From positions 65,100,001-65,164,000 of the forward strand of contig OX597823.1 of the NCBI GenBank assembly GCA_951406725.2: a DNA stretch of 64,000 nt. The letters are read 5' to 3'. Under the pieces are notes generated by a model that was given only the letters and a program-made list of their open reading frames with translations, did no database searches and was not told the origin of the DNA. Below, in pieces: positions 24,923 to 53,755 of this stretch (its first letter is position 1; every line of letters begins with the position of its first letter). Source of the stretch: Octopus vulgaris (lineage: Eukaryota). The position numbers and the translations under genes were made by a program.

Positions 24923-25072
24923 CACACACACAATATATGTATATAGATACATGCGTGTATACATATATATATGTATATAAATATATGTGTATATATATAT
25001 AATGTATATATATATATATACATATATTTATGTATGTATGTATATGTATATATATATTTATATATATATATA

Positions 25073-25298
25073 GTCTGAATTTTATTGTGTTAATTATCCA
25101 TCACGGCTGGTCTTACCAATCAGTTTCGCATGAAATTATGTAATGGAGTGTTAGGCAAATAACCAGTTAAATAATGCACGCTCGTCAGAGCGTACATTAT
25201 ATAACTGGTTTGTTGCCTAACACTCCATTACATAATTTCACGCGAAAACGATTGGTAAGACCAGCTGTGATGGATAATTAACACTATAAAATTCAAAC
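25073..25298. repeat. 226-bp palindrome (111-bp arms, GTCA spacer) made of PLE pLTR-like sequence
   Basis: Arms align ungapped with about 10 mismatches; the left end abuts (TA)n. Confidence 0.95.
25110..25191 (-). ncRNA. Minimal type I hammerhead ribozyme motif (PLE type), stem I truncated
   Basis: Minus strand ct-CTGACGA-gcgtg...catgc-GAAA-C-tgattg-G-TA-ag. Confidence 0.55.
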
Positions 25299-25774
25299 AA
25301 TATACCCACTCTACTAACAGTTATACGAGTGCGTTTCCCTGACTTATGATCTCCTAGACGACTGAAAGAGTTTCAGTGATGCAAAAATATTCTCTATTTC
25401 CATTGCATGTGTCTAAGTCTGTATGTGTCTCGAGTCATGATAGAAAGTAAAATGTACAATGCATTGTGAAGGAATGGGTGACCGTGTGGTTCCACAATGA
25501 AATTCTTAACACTGCAGCCATGGTTGCTCTCATGTTTACTGTGTTTCTGTATGGGATTAATAATTGTATTCGGAAAAGTTTGTTTATTTTAACGTTTGTT
25601 TTTCCTAATCTTGATATCATTAGTTTCTGGATAATATCGATTTCTGCAATGAAGTTATTGTTGTCGCTGTATGCCCGTCAGTGTTCAAAAGATTGCTAGA
25701 TGAATACGTTATTTTTTTTATCCTTGTTCTGTCTCCGGACACGGCTAGCCTTAATGATTATATAATTTTCACTA

Positions 25775-37253: not shown

Positions 37254-37981
37254 GGATCTTTTCTTTTTGAACGGCAGTTTTCAACACAATTTCTAGTTAA
37301 CTAAACACTTTTAAGCTTCGTATACTGGTAGAATGTGTCAAAATAAAACATTTTTTTCTCTTGGCTTTCTTGAGAAAATTGTAATTTGTAAGTTTAACGT
37401 AGTTTAATTTTTCGAATTTTAACGAATCCTATGCCCTCTATTGAGCTAAAATCATTTGCTGCGTCTAAAACTGAGACAACATTCTGTCACTTACCTAACC
37501 CTAACCCTAACCCTAAATTTTAGCCTTTCATTTTTTTTCTTAATTGTTAAATTAATTTAATTGTTACGCGTGTGTCTAAAATTATTCGTTTTGAGTTTTT
37601 GCTTTCGTTTTAGCCTTTCGGTTTTTTTTATTAATTGTTAAATTTAAATTATTTTCCATTGCTTTCGTTTTTTTTCTTAATTTTTATCCTTAAATTGATT
37701 TAACAATTAAGAAGAAAAAAAAACGAAAGGCTAAGATTTAGGGTTAGTGACAGGATGTTGTCTGTTTTAGACGCAGCAAATGATTTTAGCTCAATAGAGG
37801 GCATAGGATTGGTTAAAATTCGAAAAATTAAACTACGTTAAACGTACAAATTACAATTTTCACAAGAAAGCTAAGAGAAAAAAATGTTTTATTTTGATAC
37901 ATTCTACCAGTATACGAAGTTTAAAAGTGTTTAGTTAACTAGAAATTGTGTTGAAAACTGCCGTTCAAAAGGAAAAGATCC
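37254..37981. mobile_element. Non-autonomous fold-back DNA transposon (MITE) with about 290-bp TIRs and 8-bp TSD; Merlin-like
   Basis: Termini GGATCTTTTC.../...GAAAAGATCC; perfect TSD TATGTACC at 37246-37253 and 37982-37989; interrupts a SINE B copy. Superfamily inferred from GG ends and the 8-bp TSD. Confidence 0.9.
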
Positions 37982-38686: not shown

Positions 38687-39405
38687 GTATATATATATAT
38701 GCTTATATAGTTGGATTTGCTTACTTATTTCCGGTTTACATGTATGATTGAAGACATATCGGAGTTAGAATTATGTTTTTGTTAAATAAAACTAGCATAG
38801 AGTCTTGCCTTTCAGATGGACAACACACACGCACATGCACACACTCACACACAGAAGCACACACACACCGATACAACATTCACATGCAGAACACACATAG
38901 ATATAATGGTAAAAGACATAAATACGCTTATGCAGGGCCTTTAAAAAATAAAAAGAATATGAGCACGTCGATAAATCATGGAGGATTCCTTATCAAATTG
39001 TATTGCAATTATACTGGTGTCAGCATTTCGTAAATCTACCTTTTGTAACAGTAAATCATGTACAATATAGGATATTACTCTCGACAATGTATGCAGCACC
39101 ATAGATTCGATTTCATGTCAGAATATTCCATATATTTCCCGTAGATGCTAATTTGAAGATATTTTACGCCTATCTTTTTTTTTCCTGTTTGTTATATTTT
39201 GTTGTGCAGTTCACTAGCTGTTATCGGTATCATATTGCTATGCAGTGATACAACCCAGAGTAGCCACGATCTCCTTTCCAGAGCAAGTGATGTTATCTTT
39301 TCTAGCATATTTAGAATCTGAGAAAATGCCGCTGAGCTCATAGTCTAGAAATGTCAAGGGTGCTACCTATTCCTCCATATATAATAATAATAATAATAGT
39401 AATAA

Positions 39406-40042
39406 TAATAATATAGCCTGAATAGGATAAGCTACCCCTATTTTGCAGAAAAAAGTGTTGGCGACCGGCTATGAGACTCGAACTCATACCTCCGTGATTA
39501 CGCGTCGGAGCACCGCAACGCGTATACACGGAGGTGTGCGTTCGAGTCTCATAGCCGACCGCCAACACTTTTTTTCTGCAAAATAGGGGTAGCTTATCCT
39601 ATTCAGGCTATATTATTAGCATTATCCGGCGTTTGAGAATTTAAAATCACTTCTTTAACTTTCTAGGACATCTCAACGCTTCTAAAGCAAACTTCGTTTG
39701 TTTGTTTACGTTCATCGTAATTTGAATTTAAAGCATGATAGCGTCTCACAAAGTGAGACTTCTACAGATCTTAAATTTACGGCAGAATTTGTGATGTGGG
39801 CGGTTTAGCTTCATGATTCAGAACACCTTGACACGTAATCACGGAAGTGTGAGTTCGAATCTCATAGCCGGCCGCCAACACTTTTTTCTGCAAAATAGGG
39901 ATAGCTTATCTTGTTCAGGCTATATTATTAGCATTATCCGGCGTTTGAGAATTTAAAATCTCTTCTTTAACTTTCTAAGACAGCTCAACACTTCTAAAGC
40001 AAACTTCATTTGTTTGTTTACGTTCATCGTAATTTGAATTTA
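39406..40042 (+). mobile_element. tRNA-like repeat unit arranged as one inverted plus two tandem copies (period about 313 bp)
   Basis: Inverted arms about 39406-39507 and 39516-39618; T-loop GTTCGA(G/A)TC at 39540 and 39853, each followed by a T-run; both tandem copies end gtaatttgaattta. Confidence 0.85.
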
Positions 40043-40047
40043 TATAT

Positions 40048-40205
40048 TATATTGTATAAAGGATCGTGGGTAAGGCCAGAACAATGCGAAGTAAATGCAA
40101 GGCAAATCACAAAAAAAACATTAATTCATATATTTGTTTCTTGTGATTTGCCTTGCATTTACTTCGCATTGTTCTGGCCTTACCCACAATCTTTTATACA
40201 ATATA
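40048..40205. repeat. Near-perfect palindrome, arms about 65-70 bp
   Basis: gtgggtaaggccagaacaatgcgaagtaaatgcaaggcaaatcacaa / ttgtgatttgccttgcatttacttcgcattgttctggccttacccac. Confidence 0.95.
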
Positions 40206-50891: not shown

Positions 50892-51625
50892 TATATATTT
50901 ATATTTACAAACACAAAAAATATATATGTTTATGCATTTGTATGTATATATATATATATACATACATACATATAAATCTATACACACATATATATACATA
51001 TATATACACATATACATATGCACACATATATATTTATATATATATATACTTATATATAAATATATACATATATGTAAACATATGCTTATATATAAACATG
51101 CACATACCTATATGCGTGTGTGTGAGTGTGTGTGTGCGTGTGTGTTTGTGTGTGTTTGTGTGTGTGTGTGCGTGTGTGTTTGTTTGTGTGTGTGTGTTTT
51201 TAAGTGTGTATTAGATGTTACAAGTAGTTTTGAATTGAGGTTAACATTTAATAGAGATTTATCATAAATTCTATGAAGTATATTTGCTTCAAGTGATACA
51301 TTTTTGCTTGTACTCTGTTGTCTCTCCTTAAAGACGGCAGCTGAAAATAGAATAATTAATGGGAGCATATATTGTCTAGTATGCAAACACACACTGAACG
51401 AACATATACACGTAGGTACAAGAAGCGCATGCATATTTGTTTGAACAATTTTTAAAAAATTTATTCTGTGTTGTCACTGTTCAGGCTTTATCCGAATGCT
51501 CTACTGTTTTGTACATCACTCTCGATTTTCTCTCTTTGTCTGTCTATAAACACACACACACACATTTATGCATATATATATATATATATATATATGTTTT
51601 CGCTCAATAAAAACACTATATATAT

Positions 51626-51727
51626 GGAGGCGCAATGGCCCAGTGGTTAGGGAAGCGGACTCGCGGTTGTAGGATCGCGGTTTCGATTCCCAGACCGGGC
51701 GTTGTGAGTGTTTATTGAGCGAAAACA
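51626..51727 (+). mobile_element. 5' part of a tRNA-derived SINE related to family C
   Basis: ggaggcgcaatggcccagtggttaggg..gactcgc..ggtttcgattccc; truncated at (TA)n. Confidence 0.75.
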
Positions 51728-51832
51728 TATATATATATATATATATATATGCATAAATGTGTGTGTGTGTGTTTATAGACAGACAAAGAGAGAAAATCGA
51801 GAGTGATGTACAAAACAGTGAGTGCCCTCTGG

Positions 51833-51878
<46 letters not shown>

Positions 51879-51880
<2 letters not shown>

Positions 51881-52428
51881 CCAGAGGGCACTCACTAAAC
51901 GAATTGAAGGCATGGCTGCTCTCGATTATTGGGATCGCCTTAAAGCCTTGAAACTCTACTCTCTCCAGCGTCGCCGTGAGCGGTACATCATTTGTACGAT
52001 GTGGAGAATATACCGCCAACTTTGCCCAAACGACCTGAACATTAGCTTCAAGGTTCGTCGAAGACTGGGACCACGGGCCATACTTCCCCTGCCCAATTCA
52101 GGATCACAGCATACATGTACACTGCAACATAATTTCTTTTCCTCAACAGGCCCTGCACTATTTAACATTGTCCCGAAAGAGATCTAAGAGGAAAAGGATC
52201 CCATCAACTTTAAACGGAGTCTAGATAGATTCCTTCAAAGAATACCAGATAAGCCACCCATAATTGGATACAACACACCCAACAAAAACTCACTACTTGA
52301 ATGGACCATAAACAAAACTTGACTTAAACAGGATTCAAATAATCCTATCAGGTGGTGCTATTAAGTTAGCCATGGCCTGGACCAATCTTTGGTCGAAACA
52401 TATCTAAGTTTATCTAAGTTTATCTAAG

Positions 52429-52429
<1 letters not shown>
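51879..52429 (+). mobile_element. 5'-truncated CR1/L2-type LINE with 3' UTR and (TTATCTAAGT)n tail
   Basis: PQRALTKRIEGMAALDYWDRLKALKLYSLQRRRERY..GPALFNIVPKEI*..FKRSLDRFL..PD; tandem tail 52401-52429. Confidence 0.9.
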
Positions 52430-52476
<47 letters not shown>

Positions 52477-52792
52477 TTAGATAAACTTAGATATGTCTCG
52501 ACCAAAGATTTATAAACGTTATTCATATACCGATCTTATCAGGTAGCCAGCATGGGAATAAAATCTTCAAAGGTAATAATTATTATTAAAATTATAATTT
52601 AGGGTATCTAAAAGATGCAGCCAAACTTGACACTAAAACCACATTAAATGTTCATACAGCACCAGGAGAGAAGACAAAGAGGCAAAACAAACTAGCAAAA
52701 TAATTATCCAGTAATGAACATTTAATGTGGTTTTAGAGTCAAGCTTTGGCTGCTGCTATTTCCAGCGTGGTTGTATCCCTTAGATACCCTAA

Positions 52793-52858
<66 letters not shown>

Positions 52859-53116
52859 GTTATTAGTGAGGGATTATCAATCCTGGCAAATTAATTTTAA
52901 AAGCTGTCTGTTAGTACACCAGGTTAACAATTTTTTTTTTGCATTAGTAATGAACTTCACGTGTCCAAGGTTATAGTTCATTGTCATACTATATTGTAAA
53001 TACATGTTTCAGCCATACTGATTTTTGCACAGAATCGTATGCAAGGCTATTATAATAGATATGTTATTTTTTATTGTAGTAAATTTGAATTACAGCTGTT
53101 TCCAGTATTCATTGTA

Positions 53117-53173
<57 letters not shown>

Positions 53174-53343
53174 TTAGAGAGAGAGAGAGAAATACAATAA
53201 GGGGCTTCCAAATAGGAAAGCGTTGTGCTTCCTATTTGGAAGCCTCTTATTATATTTCTATATGAATAATATATAGTCTAATGACTAATTCGTTTTTTGT
53301 GCTAGGCCACTGGTAATAATAATTTATTATTACCCTATTTTAT

Positions 53344-53385
<42 letters not shown>

Positions 53386-53479
53386 TCCATACATGGATCC
53401 ATATAAATCCATACATGTAACTTCCAATTTAACGCCCAATCAATATGTTGAGCGCTCTTATTTCGTTTGTCCGGTCACG

Positions 53480-53755
53480 CGTATCCCACCCTACTCACAC
53501 AAAGCTCTCCATCCCCTACACCCCATTCCTCCATCTGCGCAGGCTCTGCAGTGACAACCATGATTTTCAGACTCAGACTCAACTCATGGCTTGCAACTTC
53601 ATCCTATGTGGATATCACTTCAGCAGTATCCACACAGCCCTTGCCATGGTACGATCCCTGGACCGTGCTTCTGCTCTTTCTCCTGGCTGCAGCCACGCCG
53701 TTGCCCGTCTCACGTTTCTCGTCACCTACCTCTCCTCCACCCTACCCCTCCAATG
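53480..53755 (+). mobile_element. Penelope-like RT C-terminal (thumb) fragment
   Basis: SHPTHTKLSIPYTPFLHLRRLCSDNHDF..FILCGY..LVTY matches the PLE pattern SxHPxHxKxSIPYSQFLRLRRICS..FxxRGY. Confidence 0.8.

Follow-up and report, generated by a model that had tools for sequence, protein, structure and literature searches.

Do inverted repeats that crowd together beside (TA)n tracts share one origin? The question is raised by a 1.8-kb chain in a 64,000-nt stretch of the Octopus vulgaris genome (the window; positions are counted from its first letter), located on C10 of the 2.8-Gb assembly, in which an initial annotation had recognised five fold-backs. All five were found where it had placed them, and we number them repeats 1 to 5 from left to right.

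51503..51617, plus strand: left arm of repeat 1; the single-copy sequence X, which contains (CA)n and (TA)12, followed by a 22-nt mirror of the SINE head's end; this is likely the original version of X
51617..51625, no strand: 9-nt TA remnant at the SINE 5' end; presumed former fold-back centre or target tract
51626..51726, plus strand: first 100 nt of a tRNA-like SINE, stopping where other listed copies run further
51707..51819, minus strand: right arm of repeat 1; SINE end, (TA)12 and reverse complement of X, overlapping the arm of repeat 2 by 3 nt at its end
51817..51835, minus strand: left arm of repeat 2, mirroring the first 19 nt of the adjacent LINE copy
51835..51878, no strand: (TA)22, centre of repeat 2
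51878..52428, plus strand: 5'-truncated LINE with RT C-terminus, 3' UTR and 10-nt tail repeats; 98% like its own TA-inserting family
52429..52475, no strand: (TA)n, centre of repeat 3
52476..52510, minus strand: right arm of repeat 3, a 35-nt mirror of the LINE tail with the same private tail end; abuts the family-4 tail
52511..52800, no strand: repeat 4, putative family-4 retrozyme or non-autonomous Penelope-like element (PLE) insertion, ending before the hammerhead
52511 to about 52700, minus strand, and 52714-52800, plus strand: the long copy with tail and the short copy within repeat 4
52857..53120, no strand: stretch with a hammerhead-like motif, 3' half only (minus strand, 53092-53102); no other match among the loci compared
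53188..53352, no strand: repeat 5, putative family-5 retrozyme or non-autonomous PLE insertion, ending before the hammerhead; the minus strand carries the short copy, the plus strand the long one with a tail of about 90 nt
53433..53684, plus strand: decayed PLE RT C-terminus fragment

Layout of the five inverted repeats

The arms of each repeat are nearly identical. Repeat 1 (51503-51617/51707-51819) has no substitutions and one 2-nt indel at its inner end, and both of its (TA)12 tracts, one inside each arm, measure 24 nt. Repeat 2 (51817-51896) is perfect, with 18 nt of non-repeat DNA on each side of (TA)22; repeat 3 (52384-52510) has one mismatch and one 10-nt tail unit absent, repeat 4 (52591-52655/52714-52800) three mismatches and a 21-nt gap, and repeat 5 (53188-53218/53229-53259) two mismatches. 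Shuffled flank pairs reached at least 95% identity in 0/3234 cases and at least 85% in 10, and the five mirrors are therefore not due to chance. Near-perfect inverted repeats are common in this genome, with 87 events (at least 18 complex nucleotides at 97%) in a 1.4-Mb sample of 140 evenly spaced 10-kb pieces. Other inverted repeats in the window (25067-25304, 37254-37981, 39400-39624 and 40048-40205) show 89-91% identity and are probably repeat elements.

All five repeats touch (TA)n, as the initial annotation had noted, but only repeats 2 and 3 are centred there. Repeat 1 has (TA)n within both arms and the SINE head as its spacer, this spacer including the 9-nt TA remnant, and in repeats 4 and 5 the (TA)n lies outside the element ends, not inside. 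We conclude that the five stem from different processes rather than a single one. Repeats 4 and 5 appear to be multicopy, hammerhead-bearing insertions, likely pasted in by a PLE, and repeats 1 to 3 locus-specific duplications, likely produced by fold-back repair at TA tracts flanking a young LINE; this is the reading that we favour, with moderate confidence.

Hammerhead-bearing families at repeats 4 and 5

Genome searches with the whole of each repeat returned 2159 candidates for family 4, many matched end to end, and 717 for family 5. Copies share a layout of (TA)n, short arm, copy-specific junction, longer arm with an 80-95-nt tail, and (TA)n, and the arm, spacer and arm of repeats 4 and 5 travel as one unit across copies. 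A detector of motif and pairing, applied to sequence only, found a minimal type-I hammerhead in 22/24 longer family-4 copies and 8/19 longer family-5 copies, against a chance expectation of about 0.0005 per search window. Rfam, run on five loci, reported no hammerhead, only sub-threshold microRNA matches on hairpins. Head-to-tail tandem units measure about 485 nt in family 4 (L268, L270) and 445-448 nt in family 5 (L281, L295), and no family ORF was found in these units. The copies at our locus are shorter than the monomer and stop ahead of the ribozyme. At 39 sites of the two families, the short end enters TA or another microsatellite in 19, continues into the tail in 16 and does neither in 4.

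These copy numbers, the unit structure, the hammerheads and the two fixed 3' ends are direct observations, and on such sequence grounds repeats 4 and 5 are best classed as non-autonomous PLE or retrozyme insertions whose inversion is the elements' own insertion layout. The snap-back origin that had been proposed for them is rejected, because whole elements are multicopy and hammerhead-bearing, with arms and spacer moving together. Insertion would begin with a PLE protein cutting both strands at (TA)n; reverse transcription would be primed from both ends, starting at two sites 80-95 nt apart, and the two truncated cDNAs would then be joined head to head.

Two other element classes were considered. 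A MITE or TIR DNA transposon was discarded on account of the one-sided tail and a junction that varies between copies. Helentrons and HINEs carry short, fixed subterminal inverted repeats and lack tandem hammerhead units, and were rejected as well, since arm length here varies between about 20 and 110 nt, the longer arm may lie on either side, and hammerheads are present. At the junction of repeat 4 (52701-52715), a short piece of the unit stands in opposite orientation, a small templated inversion. Long PLE-type inverted insertions at L188:5012-5506 and L157:7936-8763 have halves that meet in a TA-rich part of the unit, and self-complementary TA may also be the joint of PLE inversions.

The decayed PLE RT fragment next door, also reported initially, is real: its family has 2999 candidates, some extending into a GIY-YIG-like stretch. 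No clear link was seen between the ends of this family and families 4 or 5; at 24 of its loci, unit 5 matched none and unit 4 matched two (one weakly, one at the locus edge), and no coding PLE linked to either family was found among them. Pfam gave no match on two short fragments of the window. The PLE half-hammerhead claimed nearby is present as a motif at 53092-53102, but it lacks a CTGANGA partner before (TA)n and was linked to none of the five repeats.

Mirrored ends of one LINE

Repeats 1 to 3 are locus-specific inverted copies of adjoining DNA. Genome-wide, DNA X occurs only here and in its own mirror. The family of the LINE is young and targets TA (1169 candidates, with RVT_1 present in a longer copy), and in it, by eye and with none flagged by a scan, a 3' mirror accompanies 0/29 other copies and a 5' mirror 0/19 other 5' breaks shown. 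The truncation point that repeat 2 reflects is peculiar to this copy of the LINE, so repeat 2 is not a second insertion. Repeat 3 shares the adjacent LINE's private tail end, seen in 0/29 other copies, although it is shorter by a single tail unit and differs by one mismatch. The centres of repeats 2 and 3 are self-complementary (TA)n, and repeat 1 has just the 9-nt remnant and the tracts within its arms. The right arm of repeat 1 and the left arm of repeat 2 overlap by 3 nt (AGT, 51817-51819), and repeat 3 meets the family-4 tail with about 3 nt of microhomology at 52508-52510, a length that can arise by chance. The single-copy arms, the private ends common to mirror and template, and these 3-nt overlaps are read directly from the assembly; which arm is the copy we infer.

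Contigs from two public runs, X3 (33+46 nt) and X18 (30+46 nt), which come from different samples and studies, cross the junction of repeat 3 without mismatch, a support that concerns this junction only. Runs X1 and X2 had depth at the bin of the same junction, with no spanning piece listed.

Under the fold-back repair that we favour, (TA)n would be cut by cruciform cleavage or by a TA-seeking retroelement endonuclease, the self-complementary 3' end would fold back and prime copying of its own flank, and the new strand would be unwound and joined to the other end through microhomology. On the 5' side of the LINE both ends would have folded, the left copying the SINE end, TA and X and the right copying 19 nt of LINE, and the two copies would have met at AGT, making repeats 1 and 2 one event. 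On the 3' side one end would have folded, giving repeat 3, and been joined to the family-4 tail. The SINE head that forms the spacer of repeat 1 could be what is left of a longer mirror from which 80 nt were subsequently deleted on one side, or could reflect a looped fold-back with a second templated patch. Repeat 1 was also considered as a member of a SINE family with a built-in inverted head, and this was rejected after five loci proved to be four plain 5' inversions without duplication and one pair of diverged copies. In those four (L298-L301; C6:30700772, C9:5603908, C10:17068860 and C11:81469929), the first 50-70 nt of a tRNA-like SINE are inverted and not duplicated, the pattern that twin priming would yield.

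The chief alternative differs from break repair in timing and shares its chemistry: repeats 1 to 3 would have formed during LINE integration, with the cDNA end and the reciprocal end each annealing to itself at TA ahead of ligation. This LINE is mirrored on its 5' and its 3' side, well in excess of background (two of three blocks mirrored here, p of about 3e-5 against the sample rate), and three mirrors at one LINE therefore suggest a local cause, the insertion itself for example. Human L1 insertions with TA/AT-primed inverted duplication of the flank are described in the available portion of a preprint (10.1101/2024.12.14.628481), and the divergence of repeat 3 is about that expected for the LINE's age. 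However, the LINE departs from its family majority at 11 of 552 sites, with 10 private differences, and the arms of repeats 1 and 2 show a single differing site in 131 nt where 4.7 would be expected at that age (P(<=1) of about 0.05), suggesting that these two repeats are probably younger than the LINE unless the arms were homogenised; homogenisation or an unsampled source subfamily would lift this objection. The mirror at L198 matches an old element (86% to its next copy) at 207/207, with a TA-rich stretch at the centre, and is likewise much younger than that element. We consider an integration origin unlikely, though it is the strongest of the alternatives.

Replication template switching would dispense with a break: a polymerase stalled at (TA)n would copy the other strand backward and return (the four-point model). 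One such step leaves an inverted segment between the arms of a perfect inverted repeat, the form that repeat 1 has, and in the accessible part of a study of short-range switching (PMC7954356), perfect inverted repeats with an inverted spacer arise in this break-free way and events are enriched in AT-rich DNA. That text ties them to poly(dA:dT) and not to (TA)n, the words 'dinucleotide' and 'microsatellite' being absent from it. The back-to-back repeats 1 and 2 would call for several switches, whereas two folded ends with a 3-nt overlap need one break, and we judge template switching improbable.

Slightly less plausible still, and confined to repeat 3, is a second, 35-nt LINE insertion that entered this TA tract in tail-to-tail orientation. 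The family targets TA, and the mirror has two tail units, as do 23/29 family copies, where the adjacent copy has three. A SINE family that inserts into TA at the tails of other copies provides an analogue, with 133 tail-to-tail pairs across short TA centres on C1-C11; in 12/12 pairs examined, arm identity is 79-93%, like that of unrelated copies (median 86%), so that insertion of two copies side by side is common. Against a double insertion stands the private tail end shared with the adjacent copy and seen in none of the 29 others. We did not count these SINE pairs as fold-backs, since the 12 examined look like independent insertions, although two with shared odd tails (C5:49591936 and C10:38932873) may be fold-backs.

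An artefact of assembly or of fold-back chimeras at repeats 1 and 2 is very improbable, even with arms essentially identical down to their microsatellite lengths. Read chimeras are not known to produce internal arms this short that differ by an indel and enclose a 90-nt spacer; the neighbouring junction of repeat 3 is present in contigs of two runs from different samples, and comparable structures span the whole range of identities between 96 and 100%. Least credible of all is the initial annotation's own proposal, that one TA snap-back process acting on unrelated DNA produced all five: each touches (TA)n, the process fits repeats 1 to 3 and its signature recurs elsewhere, but it is wrong for repeats 4 and 5, which recur as whole elements at hundreds to thousands of sites with (TA)n outside.

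Recurrence in the genome and comparison with known systems

We then asked how often TA tracts are mirrored elsewhere. A strict test, requiring arms that touch perfect tracts, found a complex mirror of at least 15 nt at 0/449 TA tracts (0.8 Mb), and events became visible only after compound repeat blocks were merged. In 1.4 Mb, mirrors of at least 95% identity occur at 4/1079 TA blocks, 2/318 other self-complementary blocks, 1/1103 other blocks and 0/2536 plain sites. Before removal of element-intrinsic cases, 6/1397 self-complementary blocks compare with 1/1103 other blocks (p=0.11), and after removal of L188 and L194, both palindromic by their own nature, 5/1396 compare with 0/1102 (p=0.054) or with 0/3638 for all controls (p=0.002). 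For (TA)n itself against other microsatellites the difference lies in the predicted direction (3/1078 versus 0/1102) but is not significant (p=0.12). With 0.46 Mb of search-locus flanks added, the counts are 7/1943 versus 0/1354 (p=0.025), or versus 1/1355 (p=0.095). Left out of the fold-back count were L188 and L233 (PLE-type), L194 (a palindromic repeat family) and L223 and L225 (picked by pattern); the exclusion of L188, L194 and L233 was the author's judgement, and blocks were classed after the event. Among 43 long near-perfect inverted repeats, three are centred on (TA)6+ (background 3.1%, p=0.15) and 13 end at one.

Fold-back mirroring thus recurs but is rare, and its excess over other microsatellites is only suggestive. 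Its earlier description as a general palindrome-generating process is overstated, with about 0.3% of TA blocks mirrored and most tail-to-tail repeats across TA being independent insertions; five events in 1.4 Mb scale to about 10,000 sites in the genome (3,200-23,000). Taken individually, the cases are convincing. The layout of repeat 2 is seen again at L061 and that of repeat 1 at L102:7952-8655, where a 225/231 mirror takes in flank, (TA)8 and part of a SINE around a 233-nt spacer. A pattern search for mirrored LINE tails 20-50 nt apart returned three loci, and at L224 the mirror matches its own copy at 88/88 and has in common with it a variant found in 0/30 others. At L094:7750-8297, a whole PLE-type inverted insertion is duplicated with its private junction across (TA)25 (264/264). 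At L018:2288-2491, a 100/101 mirror of DNA with no other match among the loci compared is centred on (ATGC)n, and the process is therefore not limited to TA. Two TA-centred mirrors (51817-51896 in the window and L188:5191-5326) gave sub-threshold Rfam matches to mir-1277, mir-466 and mir-5014, themselves TA/CA-centred hairpins; as a lead only, some annotated TA/CA-centred microRNA hairpins might have the same origin.

The locus is of modest interest as it stands, a clear natural example of a repair error that has been described at induced breaks, beside two more retrozyme families, and would gain if a whole-genome count confirmed a TA-specific excess. Such an excess would supply a countable germline signature of TA-repeat breakage, which has mainly been studied in cancer cells so far, and would add a further source to PLE insertions for the near-perfect inverted repeats of octopus, which are unusually common there and correlate with hyper-editing (PMC5625713). 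It is conceivable, if rather doubtful, that in this TA-saturated genome (TA)n tracts cut by TA-seeking endonucleases of PLEs and LINEs serve as germline snap-back primers. They would have left about ten thousand young palindromes, near-perfect copies of any neighbouring DNA and in many cases formed at the two ends of a single break, which would add to the unusual load of ADAR-edited hairpin RNA in octopus.

The events at this locus are of known kinds, and the following comparisons draw on the accessible portions of the reports cited. Repeats 4 and 5 resemble EN+ Penelope-like elements (PMC8557442) in the inverted, 5'-truncated copy, partial tandems, one-end tail, (TA)n target and hammerhead within the unit, and differ in lacking an ORF and in a tail of 80-95 nt as against 30-40 nt. 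The inverted layout of PLEs has been explained by cutting and extension of both strands from two start sites (PAc; PMC11167929). Metazoan non-LTR retrozymes, proposed as PLE derivatives, are non-coding tandem monomers with a type-I hammerhead (10.64898/2026.07.22.740005); the family units are alike, whereas the copies in the window are sub-monomer, ribozyme-less and inverted.

Repeats 1 to 3 probably record a repair error already known from induced breaks. In snap-back SD-MMEJ of flies (PMC5728401), a 3' end folds on an inverted repeat, TA/AT being among those most used, and primes short synthesis; in yeast, local foldback inversions at double-strand breaks span 5 to over 150 bp (PMC11724301). 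Both join with 0-5 nt of microhomology, as repeats 1 to 3 do, but both follow induced breaks, whereas ours are fixed genomic copies for which a microsatellite would have been the primer, with folding of the two ends. The inverted duplications associated with L1 (10.1101/2024.12.14.628481) are alike in the TA/AT-primed, inverted duplication of flanking DNA at the reciprocal end of a LINE; they are somatic and experimental, and here the LINE's own ends are mirrored too, with arm identity suggesting a later date. A literature search, its coverage stopping short of subscription journals, returned such mechanism papers but no count of (TA)n-centred mirrors in an animal germline genome. Fragile TA repeats, cleaved as cruciforms and repaired by Pol theta (PMC13645644), offer a route of break and repair at (TA)n; the setting there is cancer ecDNA, and small duplications are mentioned rather than mirrors with the tract at their centre.
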